Source: a virus. Taken from it: a DNA stretch of 51,718 bases. A program made the position numbers and the translations under genes. The stretch is taken from the IMG/VR virus record IMGVR_UViG_3300013383_000248. One strand, written 5' to 3'. This document shows, piece by piece, positions 1,421-4,403 of the stretch. The number at the start of each line of letters is the position of its first letter. Positions within the stretch are counted from its first letter, which is position 1. The notes beneath the pieces were generated by a model that was given only the letters and a program-made list of their open reading frames with translations, was not told the origin of the DNA and ran no database searches.

Positions 1421-1519
1421 GTGGTCAGCGTGAAGTGAATCGAACACTCAAATTCCACCTTTGGTGTTGAATATGAGATTTGAACTCATATACTAAGATT
1501 CTACTTGAATTAATTCAAC
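1421..1519 (-). pseudogene. tRNA-like fragments: 58-nt mini tRNA-like (7-bp acceptor GTTGAAT/ATTCAAC, T arm, CCA; no D/anticodon arms) plus an isolated 3-prime half
   Basis: minus read GTTGAAT...ATGAGTTCAAATCTCAT-ATTCAAC-A-CCA (1462-1519) followed by GAGTGTTCGATTCACTT-CACGCTG-A-CCA (1421-1460). Confidence 0.3.
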
Positions 1520-1559
1520 GAAAGGGTGGTGACTTTAACCTATTTGTCTACACGCCGAT

Positions 1560-1727
1560 TTAATCATCAGAAATCATTTCTTCAGACTTCTCTTTTTCCT
1601 TCGCCCTATCATATTCCATTCCCTTACCTTTTTTAGCTGGGACAATTGACCTACGACGGCGAAACAGAAGATACTCAGTCAACTCTTCATTATCCATCTT
1701 GATAGCGGGTTTCTTAGTAGTTGCCAT
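1560..1727 (-). CDS. small hypothetical protein (55 aa), not in ORF track (<60 aa)
   Basis: GGAGATATTTGAA-ATG RBS/start, MATTKKPAIKMDNEELTEY..., stop TAA; directly downstream of an AT-rich promoter. Confidence 0.4.
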   Translation of the reverse strand: MATTKKPAIKMDNEELTEYLLFRRRRSIVPAKKGKGMEYDRAKEKEKSEEMISDD

Positions 1728-1747
1728 TTCAAATATCTCCTTTATTT

Positions 1748-1786
1748 TATATATATATTATATAATATTTTTTTTAAATTTTCAAA
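1748..1786 (-). promoter_or_regulatory. AT-rich sigma70-type promoter (minus orientation TTGAAA-N17-TATAAT within conserved 36-nt motif)
   Basis: plus-strand ttatatatatattatataatattttttttaaattttcaa = revcomp TTGAAAATTTAAAAAAAATATTATATAAT...; same motif recurs ~18 times in bases 1-36000 and once at 46428. Confidence 0.6.
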
Positions 1787-1791
1787 TTTAT

Positions 1792-1869
1792 TGGTGCTGA
1801 GACTGAGACTCGAACTCAGACATCTCCATCTTGTAGGGGTGGCGTGTTAACCTGTTACACTATCCCAGC
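1792..1869 (-). tRNA. tRNA (probable Val, anticodon TAC), CCA encoded
   Basis: acceptor GCTGGGA/TCTCAGC-A-CCA, D arm GTGT..ACAC, T arm CTGAG-TTCGAGT-CTCAG, anticodon loop ccTACaa (one mismatch in anticodon stem). Confidence 0.45.
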
Positions 1870-1933
1870 ATATTAAACTGGCTATTACAGTAGGCCCAGT
1901 AAGGTGGACCTGCCTGATTTCCACAAATATATA

Positions 1934-2638
1934 TTAATTAAAATAATTATCATAAAATTGTTTAATATTTTTTAAAGTATCAAAATCAATAGTTTGATAA
2001 TTATCAGTTAAAGCTGTATCAGGATTTTGAGTTACTTCAATAATTAATCCATCTGCTCCAACAGCAAGGGCAGCCTTAGATAAAGGATAAACTAATTCTC
2101 TAATTCCAGTTCCATGACTTGGATCTACAATTACTTTATAGCCTTCTTTTTGTAAGAGAGGAACAGCAGCTAAATCTAATGTATTTCTTGTTGCTGTCTC
2201 AAATGTCTTAATTCCTCGTTCACATAAAATAATATCTTTTGCCCCAAATTTCCTAAGATATTCAGCAGCTCCTAAAAATTCTTTTATAGTCATTCCAAAT
2301 CCTCTTTTTAAGAGAATTGGTTTATTGACAGGAGCAATTTCTTTTAACATTTCAAAATTTTGACAATTACGAGAACCAATTTGAAGAATATCTATATCAT
2401 CATATAATGATAAATATTTGATAGCTACAATTTCACTTACAATTTTAAGCCCAGTTTCTTTTTTAATTTGAGCTAAAATTTTTAAACCTTCTTCGCGTAA
2501 TCCTTGAAAACTATCTGGAAATGTCCTTGGTTTAAAAGCTCCGGCACGAAAATATTCTATTCCCAATTCTTTACATCTATTGGCATCTACAATGCCTTTT
2601 TTATAACTCTCTAAAGAGCAAGGACCTACAATTAACAT
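1934..2638 (-). CDS. 3-deoxy-7-phosphoheptulonate (DAHP) synthase, class I-beta catalytic domain only (234 aa)
   Basis: motifs GPCS.ES, RAGAFKPRT.P.SFQG, LQIGSRN.QNF, KRG, ILCERG.KTFE..RNTLD, VDPSHG.G.RE colinear with Thermotoga/Pyrococcus-type DAHPS; AGGAGG RBS; regulatory N-terminal domain absent. Confidence 0.8.
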   Translation of the reverse strand: MLIVGPCSLESYKKGIVDANRCKELGIEYFRAGAFKPRTFPDSFQGLREEGLKILAQIKKETGLKIVSEIVAIKYLSLYDDIDILQIGSRNCQNFEMLKEIAPVNKPILLKRGFGMTIKEFLGAAEYLRKFGAKDIILCERGIKTFETATRNTLDLAAVPLLQKEGYKVIVDPSHGTGIRELVYPLSKAALAVGADGLIIEVTQNPDTALTDNYQTIDFDTLKNIKQFYDNYFN

Positions 2639-2740
2639 TTATCTTCCTCCTAATTCACATCAGGGATTTAAATGTTAATCCCACTTATATCTAATTCAAA
2701 TGGTGCGGTTGGGGAGGTTCGAACTCCCGACACCCTGCTT

Positions 2741-3475
2741 ATGGTGGTTTAAATAAGATTTGAACTTATATCTATTTCCATTGAATGTCATTATAAAGAT
2801 TAATTTCTGCTTTTTTAGTAGGTAAATTCATAGAAATACACCATTTACGAATAGCATTATCACTTACTCCATACTACTTACCTATCGCTACAAAAGACTA
2901 ATTACGAATTAACTATTTTAAAGTTTCTCTGTCTGGTCTTTCTGCTTTACGCTAAATAATATGACTACACTCTAAACAATAAGTTGTATTAGAATTTAAT
3001 AATTTGCCACATCGTTGACAATAATGCTTTTTACCTTCTCTAATTTCTTTATTCATCTATAATAGATATTCTGCCTATTCATTATCAAATAAATCCTAAT
3101 AATTAATAGGGACTTGATAATATCCAGCGTGTATTCCTTTATGACAATTAGAACAAACTAAAATACATTTTTTAGCTTCATTAATTTGACGTTCTAATGA
3201 TACCATTTTATTAGCTGATAAAGGAATTTCTTTTTCTTCAGGATTTACATGATGAAACTCTAAAGCTTCTTGGAATTTATCAAAACCACAAATACAACAC
3301 TTACTATGGAATAAAGAAATTAAATTAGTTTTTCTATTTCTAACAAAATTGCATACATTTTCTGAATTAGTTTTAGCTATAAATAACAGCTCCTTTCACT
3401 GTTATTTAATTTCTAAACCAATTCTCTTAATCTTCTTTGACCCAGTTCGAAATTGCATTACTTATGCTATTAAAT
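2741..3475 (-). mobile_element. intron (group I-like by context) inserted in tRNA anticodon loop, carrying an HNH homing endonuclease gene
   Basis: sequence between the two tRNA exons; contains a complete HNH endonuclease ORF on the same strand. Confidence 0.5.
2766..3395 (-). CDS. intron-encoded HNH homing endonuclease with Zn ribbon and C-terminal HTH (up to 209 aa; 5 in-frame TAG codons; no canonical ATG/GTG/TTG start)
   Basis: stop-to-stop frame reads ...CCICGFDKFQEALEFHHVNPEE..LVCSNCHKGIHAGY..Q..HYCQRCGKLLNSNTTYCLECSHIIQ..SFVAIGKQYGVSDNAIRKWC... continuously if TAG=Q, ending at TAA 2766-2768. Confidence 0.55.
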
Positions 3476-3986
3476 CAAAGGCAGGTGCTCTACCGACTGA
3501 GCTACAACCGCATATACGCATTTTAGAGGTTCCGGACCCTCCTGAGCAGCATCACTCAAATAAGATTTTGTCACCTAATTTTTAAAATCTTATCAAAAAA
3601 CAAACCGGTTTTATAGCTGAACCTTTAACTCCCTTTCCGTTTTTACTTATCTGTCAAGAAACAACCAAAGAGTAAGTATAAAAAGACAACATATGAAGAA
3701 TTTGTTTATAGACAAGCTTCAATCACTCGTCTGCGGTCATATTATTTTATAATCTAATTAATAATTTCAACCGCGTTCTTTAATCTGGATAATCCTATAT
3801 TCAAGTTTAAAATTATGGGCGATTATCAGTTTCCCCATTCTAATTAATCCTTCTATTGGAATTGAACCAATACCTCCGCCTCTTTCAGACAGCGTGCTTC
3901 CATTATACCAAGAAGTAATATCAATATGGCTTATTTACATAACGATGGAGCCATCAACCACCGAATAGTATGAAGTTATCAGCTTA

Positions 3987-4071
3987 TGGTAGGCAGGACA
4001 GGACTTGCACCTGCACACCTAATGGCCTATCTTTCTAAGAGACAGTTGTCTACTCATTCCAGCACCTGCCC
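3987..4071 (-). tRNA. tRNA-Leu-like (anticodon TAG), long variable arm
   Basis: acceptor GGGCAGG/CCTGCCT-A-CCA, T arm GCAGG-TGCAAGT-CCTGT, anticodon loop ctTAGaa; D arm weak. Confidence 0.35.
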
Positions 4072-4267
4072 ATATTGGCGGATTTCTCCGCCTTACCCCT
4101 CTCCCAATTTCTTGATTATGAGAGGATTTTACTATGAAGTTCATCATAGCTAGAACGTTAAAGCCCGATTTCCCTTTGCCTCAGTTTATTTTTAATTGGT
4201 CTATTGCCACTAGAATAGTAATTAACTATTTAGTTCAAATCGGAAACCCCATGTATAAGACCAATGA

Positions 4268-4403
4268 TGGCGGAAACGGTAGGGCATGATCCTACAACCC
4301 CTTGATTATGAAGATGACTATAAGATTTGAACTTATACCTCTAAGCATACTACTTATACGAAGTCATCACAGTCAAGTACTCTACCAATTAAGCTACATT
4401 TCC
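4268..4403 (-). tRNA. tRNA-Met-like (CAT) interrupted in the anticodon loop by a ~60-nt hairpin element
   Basis: GGAAATG-TA-GCTTAATTGGTAGAGT-A-CTTGA-CT [60-nt insert: GATGACT..TATAAGTTCAAATCTTATA..AGTCATC] CATAA-TCAAG-...GTAGGATCATGCCCTAC-CGTTTCC-G-CCA; removing the insert restores loop ctCATaa. Confidence 0.4.

Follow-up and report, generated by a model that had tools for sequence, protein, structure and literature searches.

tRNA-shaped inserts in anticodon loops of phage tRNA genes, with a tentative route for their removal from RNA

Four interrupted tRNA genes in the array of a gut phage

We analyzed the tRNA array of a gut phage represented by the IMG/VR record IMGVR_UViG_3300013383_000248 (51,718 nt, the whole of which is called the window; labels of the form L0xx denote related or compared contigs) and found four tRNA genes whose anticodon loops are interrupted by inserts of similar architecture. 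An earlier reading based on the sequence alone (the sequence-only reading), which covered positions 1421-4403, had pointed out a recurrent hairpin in this array. This recurrence is confirmed: ATRAGTTCAAATCTYAT occurs on the minus strand at 1473-1489, 2753-2769 and 4320-4336, three times against 0.00 times expected from 100 dinucleotide-preserving shuffles. These hairpins are almost certainly the T-arms of a single family of tRNA-shaped inserts, each nested in the anticodon loop of a phage tRNA. The interrupted genes encode tRNA-Glu(UUC), tRNA-Lys(UUU), tRNA-Asn(GUU) and tRNA-Ile(UAU), and their inserts are termed A, C, B and D, respectively. All four inserts have a common layout, which is that of a tRNA without an anticodon arm: a 7-bp closing stem, a U-N link, a 4-bp D-arm with a loop of 5-7 nt, a centre, a 5-bp T-arm with a 7-nt loop and a 4-nt tail. 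The D-loop AAGUA and the T-loop UUCAAAU are common to inserts A, B and C. Across the family the centre comprises about 0-20 nt, or about 680-810 nt when an open reading frame (ORF) is present. All window genes are encoded on the minus strand, to which all features of the window given below belong, and the G+C content is 35.5%.

The gene for tRNA-Glu(UUC) (1422-1557; 5' exon 1520-1557, 3' exon 1422-1461) was found by aragorn with introns allowed and is split between loop positions 36 and 37 (CUUUC/AA). Insert A (58 nt, 1462-1519) is composed of the stem GTTGAAT/ATTCAAC, the link TA, the D-arm ATTC-AAGTA-GAAT, an 8-nt centre, the T-arm ATGAG-TTCAAAT-CTCAT and the tail ACCA. It scores 72 bits with our own covariance model R1 (described below) and, taken alone, 38.6 bits with the Rfam tRNA model, which exceeds the gathering score; its nested arms are also visible in the minimum free energy fold of the Glu precursor. 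The same 58 nt had previously been described as a mini tRNA-like unit lacking both D- and anticodon arms. The tRNA-like unit and the missing anticodon arm hold, but a 4-bp D-arm (ATTC/GAAT) is present and the unit is an insert in tRNA-Glu(UUC) rather than a free-standing element.

The gene for tRNA-Lys(UUU) (2701-3511; 5' exon 3477-3511, 3' exon 2701-2741), delimited with the help of intron-less syntenic orthologs, is split as CUUU/UAA. Its insert C (735 nt, 2742-3476), to which homologous inserts exist in L039, L011-L015, L044, L048 and L050, holds an ORF for an HNH homing endonuclease. It is composed of the stem GATTTAA/TTAAACC (6 of 7 bp), the link TA, the D-arm GCAT-AAGTA-ATGC, a 685-nt centre, the T-arm ATAAG-TTCAAAT-CTTAT and the tail ACCA. 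The hairpin near 2750 had been said to overlap the 3' end of the HNH gene, and the stop codon does lie inside the T-stem; the hairpin itself is the T-arm of the 735-nt insert. In the gene for tRNA-Asn(GUU) (4268-4403; 5' exon 4369-4403, 3' exon 4268-4308; split CUGU/UAA; intron-less ortholog in L035/L036) we found insert B (60 nt, 4309-4368; 59.9 bits with model R1), with the stem GATGACT/AGTCATC, the link TC, the D-arm GTAT-AAGTA-GTAT, a 10-nt centre, the T-arm ATAAG-TTCAAAT-CTTAT and the tail TTCA. A 60-nt insert bounded by GATGACT/AGTCATC in an anticodon loop had been recognized correctly here, but the host gene had been taken for tRNA-Met, while it is tRNA-Asn(GUU) with the loop CUGU/UAA. 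The 'CAT' that was read as the Met anticodon consists of the UUCA tail of insert B and the first base of the 3' exon. The fourth gene, tRNA-Ile(UAU) (6331-6470; 5' exon 6438-6470, 3' exon 6331-6372; split CUU/AUAA), lies outside the range of the sequence-only reading and was found by aragorn with introns allowed and by comparison with syntenic relatives. Its insert D (65 nt, 6373-6437; 43.3 bits with model R1) is composed of the stem CCGCGTA/TATGCGG, the link TC, the D-arm GTCT-AACAGAA-AGAC, a 13-nt centre, the T-arm GTAAG-GGCAGCA-CTTGC, whose loop is non-canonical, and the tail GCCA.

At default settings aragorn calls five window tRNAs and misses all four interrupted genes. When introns are allowed the four genes are added, called SeC, Gln, His and Gly instead of Glu, Lys, Asn and Ile. 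These anticodon calls are arbitrary because aragorn presumes the canonical intron position 37/38, and the four identities are ruled out by the intron-less orthologs. In-silico splicing of the window genes yields tRNA-Glu(ttc), tRNA-Lys(ttt), tRNA-Asn(gtt) and tRNA-Ile(tat), with the predicted spliced junctions GTCACCACCCTTTCAAGGTGGAATTTGAG for Glu, GAGTACTTGACTGTTAATCAAGGGGTTG for Asn, AGAGCACCTGCCTTTTAAGCAGGGTGTC for Lys and GAACGGGCGACTTATAATCGCTTGATGAG for Ile (an example of a predicted exon-exon junction is ...CCACCCTTTC/AAGGTGG...). No other Glu, Lys, Asn or Ile(UAU) gene was found in the window. L002, an independent ENA assembly, is identical to the window over 3919-4530, and therefore the Asn gene with insert B and the neighboring tRNA-Leu are not an assembly artefact. 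This identity covers insert B only; inserts A, C and D are supported by homologous copies in related contigs.

Insert boundaries and structure in related phages

Relatives of the array were retrieved with three anchors, namely the HNH protein, the RNA ligase and a 55-aa protein encoded at 1560-1727. The search with the HNH protein led to loci in IMG/VR and metagenomes, one human-gut contig among them, and the 55-aa protein led to six syntenic arrays of closely related phages (L034-L039), whose RNA ligases are 91-96% identical to that of the window. Other anchors returned little: a 403-aa neighbor protein retrieved a single relative (L001, 30% identical) and the match obtained with DAHP synthase was unrelated. 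The pattern AAGTA...ATRAGTTCAAATCTYAT has three matches in IMG/VR, all of them inside coding regions and attributed to chance, and the 5' exon of tRNA-Asn as an exact pattern has none. Among the GenBank phages no relative of window positions 1-7000 was found by megablast and blastn, and the four concatenated inserts gave no match by blastn. A profile search of genome contigs from bacterial and archaeal species with an alignment of HNH proteins yielded no HNH relative and hence no host or prophage.

We compiled a catalog of 27 inserts, 4 from the window and 23 from relatives, whose host genes are Lys, Glu, Gln, Asn and Ile(UAU). The syntenic Lys gene is intact in L034 (8771-8845) and L035 (9088-9164), contains a 58-nt insert in L036-L038 and a 735-nt insert in L039 and in the window. 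The Lys exons of L034 (intron-less), L037 (58 nt) and L039 (735 nt) differ by one D-loop base. Because these exons are near-identical, the inserted block can be defined unambiguously as CTTT/G...ACCA/TAA, i.e. from base +1 of the closing stem to the CCA. The Lys exon body of the window resembles that of L035, and only the anticodon stem around the insert is shared with L034, L037 and L039. Intron-less orthologs were also found for Glu (L034 10171-10247, loop CTTTCAA) and for Asn (L035/L036 12123-12198, loop CTGTTAA). The latter ortholog and the window gene have the same unusual T-loop GGATCATNCC (GGAUCAUNCC) and a discriminator G. Since loop, T-loop and discriminator match, the gene at 4268-4403 is tRNA-Asn(GUU) and not tRNA-Met. 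We noticed that the T-loops of the window tRNA-Asn (AUCAUGC) and of tRNA-Met at 1092-1167 (AGCAUCC) do not begin with the canonical U54-U55-C56. The Ile(UAU) genes of the six relatives have the same anticodon stem as the window gene and contain a different, 73-nt insert, which is located two bases further 3' (CUUAU/AA).

A simple boundary rule holds for the catalog. In all 27 inserts the 5' junction is base +1 of the acceptor-like stem, and the tail is NCCA in 23 of them (RCCA in 21), while UUCA (insert B), C, AA and UG are found once each. Counted together, the bases that separate the insert stem from the anticodon stem of the host number 7 plus the tail length. Base -1 is U in 23 and base +1 is G in 19 of the 27 inserts. 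When the stretch from stem start to tail is deleted in silico, every one of the 27 host genes gives a canonical tRNA at the default threshold of aragorn. For one host in L014, which is probably Gln-like, judging from its general resemblance to E. coli tRNA-Gln, the anticodon UUG is obtained only if the deletion runs from stem start to NCCA.

The structure of the inserts was evaluated in an alignment of 18 distinct inserts, for which the centres of the long ones were trimmed. Standard pairs occupy 97.6% of the stem cells, compared to 38-50% after sliding the 3' partners by 1-3 columns; 14 of 16 pairs are changed on both sides, and the covariation score was reached by none of 500 shuffles. In the acceptor stem 99.2% of the cells are paired and compensatory changes occur in all seven pairs, and the D-stems and T-stems are paired to 98.6% and 94.4%, respectively. 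Over the whole catalog (24 inserts tabulated; L044, L048 and L050 paired by eye) the acceptor-like stem is fully paired, 7/7, in 26 of 27 inserts and 6/7 in insert C. The bases U8, the D-loop G and A, G53, C56, A57 and C61 are invariant, and U54, A58 and the terminal CA are nearly so; the invariant bases are universal tRNA core bases. The view that the hairpins and half-tRNAs might be random decay products, which the sequence-only reading had named as the outcome that would speak against it, is ruled out by this strong covariation and by the conservation in relatives. A convincing D-arm is absent in three very short inserts, which are the 44-nt form of L016/L018, the insert of L019 and the Gln insert of L014.

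From the same alignment we built the covariance model R1. Applied to the window, it detects the four inserts and, apart from weak matches to ordinary tRNAs, nothing else, and in particular no free-standing copies. The inserts do not have the anticodon arm with a 7-nt loop that a functional tRNA requires: its place is taken by a centre of 8-13 nt in A, B and D and by the ORF in C. At default settings aragorn calls none of the 17 short inserts (<140 nt) as tRNA. The 73-nt Ile insert of the relatives is a degenerate full cloverleaf, which resembles tRNA-Arg(GCG) at a reduced aragorn threshold.

Probable mode of spread of the inserts and their proposed removal from RNA

The ORF of insert C (2766-3380) comprises 204 codons and matches the Pfam family HNH (E 1.6e-6) as well as HNH_2; its TAA stop lies inside the T-stem. 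The frame contains eight TAG codons and no internal TAA or TGA, and the other two frames contain 8 and 31 TAA/TGA codons. Several of the TAG positions align to Gln in the TAG-free homolog of L015. We rejected the view that the ORF is a pseudogene with eight stops, as all of these are TAG, the other frames are rich in TAA/TGA and the alignment with L015 points to Gln. The remaining genes of the window have essentially no in-frame TAG, and no tRNA(CUA) was found in the window; a tRNA(CUA) adjoins the arrays in L007/L013 and L044. For alternative-code phages, preferential recoding of intron endonuclease ORFs, which delays their expression, has been described (bioRxiv 10.1101/2021.08.26.457843). 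The window ORF starts with ATA where the L039 homolog has ATG, and together with the A.C mismatch in the closing stem this may indicate that the window copy is at the beginning of decay.

Homologs of the HNH ORF are found in at least eight distinct inserts. With 44-88% identity they occupy the same shell within different tRNA-Lys bodies (L039, L011-L015, L044, L048 and L050), and the HNH-bearing copies measure 730-860 nt. In L016-L019, L045 and L051 the homologs are free-standing and located directly beside tRNA-Lys genes; in L016 and L018 the neighboring tRNA-Lys has a 44-nt insert that consists of acceptor stem, T-arm and ACCA only. The Glu inserts form a reduction series, from 861 nt with the ORF in L014 to 132 nt in L011, 95 nt in L012 and 58 nt in insert A of the window, and the 132-nt and 95-nt inserts retain the last HNH codons (TDEEWLKI followed by the stop). 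The Ile inserts of L034 and L035 are 95% identical, compared to 74% for the surrounding exons, both sets of which still form perfect cloverleaves. Two features of homing introns are seen, an encoded endonuclease and presence or absence at one site with conserved flanks. From these comparisons it is likely that the long form spreads by HNH homing tied to tRNA-Lys genes: the HNH-encoding form would move at the DNA level, and the short forms would be its ORF-less deletion derivatives. The series is in line with a homing element that enters tRNA genes, is stripped of its ORF and survives as a structured remnant. The earlier suggestion of a mobile tRNA-derived element or of non-canonical tRNA genes pointed in the right direction, inasmuch as there is one homologous family of tRNA-shaped inserts, one of which contains an HNH homing endonuclease. 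Mobility is seen in the presence/absence polymorphism of the syntenic Lys gene among related phages; what had escaped the sequence-only reading is the single nested architecture common to all the hairpins.

Two further observations concern HNH homologs outside the inserts. The intron-less tRNA-Lys(UUU) genes beside free-standing HNH genes (L017 ~9810-9895, L045 2240-2322 and L051 4734-4816) have a variable-arm hairpin of 13-15 nt, which is unusual for tRNA-Lys. In the cultured Herelleviridae phage SDFMU_Pbc of Bacillus (L040 ~1380-2110; OQ884030.1 37096-37671) a 38% identical HNH homolog, listed in GenBank as 'hypothetical protein', is flanked by tRNA-like fragments, with a D-arm upstream and a T-arm and acceptor strand downstream. 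This phage was rejected as a carrier of the family, as no clean host tRNA could be parsed and model R1 gave no match.

It is quite likely that the inserts are removed from RNA and that working tRNAs result. The overall explanation that we favor, with some reserve, is that they are mobile tRNA-shaped introns which are excised as tRNA mimics and resealed by a phage ligase. More tentative, and in our view rather doubtful in its particulars, is a route in which the insert would mimic a tRNA so that the tRNA end-processing enzymes excise it. RNase P would cut at the 5' end of the insert and leave a 3'-OH on the 5' exon, an RNase Z/BN-like or RNase E-like endonuclease would cut just after the CCA and leave a 5'-phosphate on the 3' exon, and the nick in the still base-paired host tRNA would be sealed by the ATP-dependent RNA ligase of the phage, giving a 7-nt anticodon loop. 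RNase P and RNase Z recognize acceptor stem, T-arm, elbow bases and RCCA, and they leave 3'-OH and 5'-phosphate ends. Since such cuts leave a nick in a base-paired anticodon loop, the ligase could act as the direct sealer. The frequent U at -1, G at +1 and RCCA tail given above are consistent with substrates of both enzymes, and cutting directly after an encoded CCA is known for T. maritima RNase Z and E. coli RNase E (PMC7479834). The window encodes a DraRnl-like ATP-dependent RNA ligase (32685-34055; PF09414, PF21189 and TIGR02306, E 4e-12), which we infer to be the candidate sealing enzyme; a sequence search of PDB with this protein gave no match. The distant carriers L011 and L012 have a 41% identical ligase homolog at a distance of 3.5-9.5 kb from their interrupted tRNA genes, within one 20-kb locus. 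Together with a metallophosphoesterase, an RlaP nucleotidyltransferase and an AAA_33 P-loop kinase, the ligase makes up an RNA repair set in the window (13908-15688, 21894-22433 and 32685-34055).

A number of points weigh against excision as a tRNA mimic. The T-loop of insert D is non-canonical, and insert C has a mismatch in the closing stem and an ORF without ATG. With tails of 1 (C), 2 (AA, UG) and 4 nt the 3' cut is at no fixed distance from the stem, which would not be predicted if RNase Z simply measured from the stem, and CCA inhibits most RNase Z enzymes of bacteria. As tRNA-rich phages commonly have RNA repair genes anyway, finding them here is weak evidence. The introns of Lak megaphages (see below) have a 5' leader of 27-31 nt, so that an RNase P site would not be the 5' splice site there. 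Furthermore, a second intron type without tRNA shape is found at the same loop positions in relatives (L039 10417-10955, L034 9379-9935), which hints at a splicing activity independent of tRNA mimicry. Introns of this type, also found in L051 (7979-8534), are about 460-480 nt long and have a long imperfect closing hairpin; their hosts are Asn, Val and one gene called 'Leu' by aragorn, and they hold an ORF that appears PD-(D/E)XK-like by eye only. The L039 Asn gene has its intron-less allele in L038 (10661-10735), and no Rfam intron match was obtained in L039 and L034, the two contigs scanned.

We weighed five alternatives to this explanation. Rather unlikely, in our estimate, is that the inserts are true introns which another endonuclease of phage or host cuts at the junction of helix and internal loop, and that the phage kinase, phosphoesterase and ligase then heal and seal the ends in a T4-like manner; the tRNA shape would in that case have another role, in folding, in stabilizing the RNA after excision or as a feature recognized by the HNH protein. 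The varying tail lengths, the second intron type, the leader that precedes the nested tRNA in Lak introns and the full healing-and-sealing set in the window (AAA_33 kinase, metallophosphoesterase, RlaP and RNA ligase) all speak for such an enzyme. However, no candidate endonuclease was identified, the 5' junction at stem +1 without exception and the prevailing NCCA are as in RNase P substrates, and the conserved bases are those of the tRNA elbow and core. We regard it as improbable that the insert itself is the product, i.e. a small CCA-ended tRNA-like RNA acting as a defense decoy or processing signal, with the host gene as its carrier or promoter, a view that is compatible with splicing. It would agree with the conserved tRNA core bases and CCA end, with the degenerate cloverleaf of the 73-nt Ile insert, with the full tRNA held by Lak introns (PMC6784885) and with the presence of another tRNA mimic, a YrlA-like element, in the same array. 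Yet an anticodon arm is missing from most copies, some being no more than 44-nt minihelices, aragorn called none of them a tRNA at default settings, HNH-bearing copies extend to 730-860 nt, and model R1 found no free-standing copies in the window. Less probable still is selfish DNA that is never removed from RNA and has inactivated four tRNA genes, which could be tolerated as phage tRNAs are dispensable. The HNH gene would account for spread without benefit to the phage, and intron-less alleles do exist in relatives; but a canonical cloverleaf arises in all 27 host genes after insert removal, the Ile insert is present in all six relatives, whose exon bodies are down to 74% identical and nevertheless form perfect tRNAs, the stems of the inserts show compensatory evolution that a DNA-only parasite would not need, and the window yielded no Glu, Lys, Asn or Ile(UAU) genes besides the interrupted ones.

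The two established classes of tRNA intron fit far less well. A group I intron has a P3-P8 catalytic core, which usually requires a minimum of about 200 nt, a U.G pair at its 5' splice site and a terminal G. Ordinary self-splicing group I introns are known from the anticodon loops of bacterial tRNAs, namely cyanobacterial tRNA-Leu and tRNA-fMet, Azoarcus tRNA-Ile and tRNA-Asn and tRNA-Asp of Patescibacteria, some of them with homing endonucleases and with presence/absence polymorphism (PMC13011429), and the loop position and HNH ORF of our inserts match this pattern. The inserts of 44-73 nt are nevertheless too small for a group I core and end as CCA-tailed tRNA mimics, the 735-nt form without its ORF consists only of the tRNA-like shell and an upstream non-coding leader of the ORF, and the last insert base is A and not G. 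No match to RF00028, group II or any Rfam intron or ribozyme was obtained at E<=1 in window positions 1-9000 or at E<=0.01 in the relatives L034, L037 and L039. The sizes down to 44 nt and the missing Rfam matches argue against self-splicing, and we find a group I or group II origin very improbable indeed. Hardly any weight can be given, likewise, to introns of the archaeal or eukaryal type with a bulge-helix-bulge, which are cut by a splicing endonuclease (EndA/Sen) and rejoined by RtcB or Trl1. Like these, the inserts are short, appear to depend on proteins, are located in the anticodon loop and would need an RNA ligase to rejoin the tRNA halves. However, the two junctions share a single asymmetric internal loop (3-5 nt at its 5' side, 3-8 nt and mostly 6-8 at its 3' side) without an intervening 4-bp helix, instead of forming a 3-4-3 bulge-helix-bulge, and the insertion positions range from 34/35 to 36/37 and not 37/38. 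The context is also that of a bacterial phage: promoter-like repeats of the sigma-70 type and Shine-Dalgarno sites point to a bacterial host, and the scan of bacterial and archaeal genome contigs gave no HNH relative.

Comparison with known systems and other observations

In the literature that we searched, CCA-tailed tRNA-shaped introns are not described and no mechanism for them is given; the only precedent found was that of the Lak megaphages. Their tRNA introns were called 'enigmatic' and intron-less variants were reported; neither a rule of architecture nor a mechanism was proposed (Devoto et al. 2019, Nat Microbiol, PMC6784885). As in the present family, the anticodon loop of a phage tRNA contains an insert with a tRNA-like unit: in tRNA-Thr(UGU) and tRNA-Tyr(GUA) of Lak-A1 a nested unit of 7-bp stem and T-arm abuts the 3' exon, and an HNH homolog with 34% identity is located in the same array. 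Unlike our inserts, those of Lak begin with a leader hairpin of 27-31 nt before the nested unit, which places the 5' junction ahead of the stem start; an anticodon arm is retained in the nested unit, the tail measures 1-2 nt and is not NCCA, no HNH ORF is found inside the insert, and there is no blastn similarity to the present inserts. In both Lak-A1 genes (L053, MK250016.1, c22332-22518 and c29984-30148) we observed that the intron opens with bases complementary to the last part of the 5' exon, anticodon included (CUGUA/UACAG and UUGU/UUACAA), and that these are followed by a small hairpin and an A-rich linker.

The proposed logic of a mimic that directs cuts at its own two ends within a longer transcript has parallels. 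In mitochondrial tRNA punctuation, plant mitochondrial t-elements and the mascRNA of MALAT1, an acceptor stem and T-arm mimic recruits the tRNA end-processing nucleases. The flanks are never rejoined there, whereas here the mimic lies inside another tRNA, the flanks of which would need ligation. Sealing of an anticodon-loop nick in paired tRNA halves by a phage ligase is known from T4 Pnk/Rnl1, with tRNA-Lys(UUU) as the classic substrate. In that system the break is host damage with 2',3'-cyclic phosphate and 5'-OH ends, while it would be a programmed step here, and the ligase of the window is DraRnl-like and not of the Rnl1 type.

A ribozyme-free, CCA-tailed tRNA mimic of 44-73 nt in an anticodon loop fits no characterized intron class. 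Introns in bacterial-type tRNAs are generally regarded as group I ribozymes, and the present inserts depart from that. What is added here is the boundary rule from stem +1 to NCCA and the allelic series of intron-less, 58-nt and 735-nt forms, the last with HNH, which illustrates the joint evolution of a homing endonuclease and a structured insert. As standard tRNA finders miss or mis-assign such genes, tRNA repertoires of gut phages and inferences on codon usage or recoding are biased. From the genomic evidence one might imagine a third route of tRNA splicing beside the group I ribozyme and the bulge-helix-bulge endonuclease, in which a tRNA-disguised intron is excised by end processing and the tRNA is resealed by a phage ligase, a possibility we put forward with more doubt than confidence. 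If true, it would link tRNA processing, RNA repair ligases and the conflict of phage and host over tRNAs, and would constitute a categorically new splicing route. Sealing by a phage enzyme could then let the phage time its supply of Lys, Glu, Asn, Gln and Ile tRNAs, and a released CCA-ended minihelix could act as a decoy for host defenses that target tRNAs. The Lys, Glu and Gln tRNAs with U34 in the anticodon are classic targets of anticodon nucleases.

The array contains a further tRNA mimic. The sequence-only reading had described two tRNA halves in permuted order at 1200-1262, and a T-arm, a capped acceptor-like hairpin and a D-arm do stand in permuted order at 1170-1285, unrelated to the inserts. 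This element, between tRNA-Glu and tRNA-Met, matches the Y-RNA-like (YrlA-type) family RF02553 of Rfam with 43.8 bits (E 2.7e-7) and has the T-arm, the capped 7-bp acceptor-like hairpin and the D-arm on an outer stem. The same tRNA-like domain on a long stem characterizes the YrlA Y-RNA-like RNAs (RF02553; Chen et al. 2014, PMC4201824), but the score is under the gathering score of 69. Its conservation extends to L034, L035, L037 and L038, where the D-stem shows compensatory changes (GCUC/GAGC, GCGU/GCGC and GUUU/AAAC). It is a separate tRNA-mimic RNA outside the insert family. The window ORFs that were scanned include no Ro60/TROVE protein.

Two other RNAs of the window deviate from ordinary tRNAs. 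At 3847-3917 (L006 767-837) a 71-nt tRNA-like RNA, called 'tRNA-Phe(aaa)' by aragorn and scoring 31 bits with Rfam, has a UGAAAGA loop (G33) and no CCA; it is near-identical in relatives and is probably a conserved non-canonical tRNA-like RNA and not a decoding tRNA. In the tRNA at 6561-6632 (45 bits with Rfam) the anticodon loop measures 6 or 8 nt (UUAGA-GUUAGU-UCUAA), for which aragorn reports a 2-base anticodon, and its counterparts in relatives (L034 10429-10502, L037 10910-10983) have the loop AUUUAAU with a possible UUA anticodon.

By means of a regular-expression scan we found eight near-identical copies of the sigma-70-type promoter-like repeat TTGAAAA-N16-TATAAT in the window, of which those at 1757-1785, 4449-4477, 6498-6526 and 6685-6713 lie upstream of tRNA groups; the others are at 10938-10966, 21266-21294, 26906-26934 and 46438-46466. 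Ribosome-binding sites of the form AGGAG are present as well, and in the relative L006 an identical promoter-like sequence precedes the same small gene as in the window. Finally, the S-adenosylmethionine synthetase encoded at 24744-26717 has its N and M domains at residues 1-175 and its C domain at residues 517-638, and the insertion of ~340 aa between them may be an intein.

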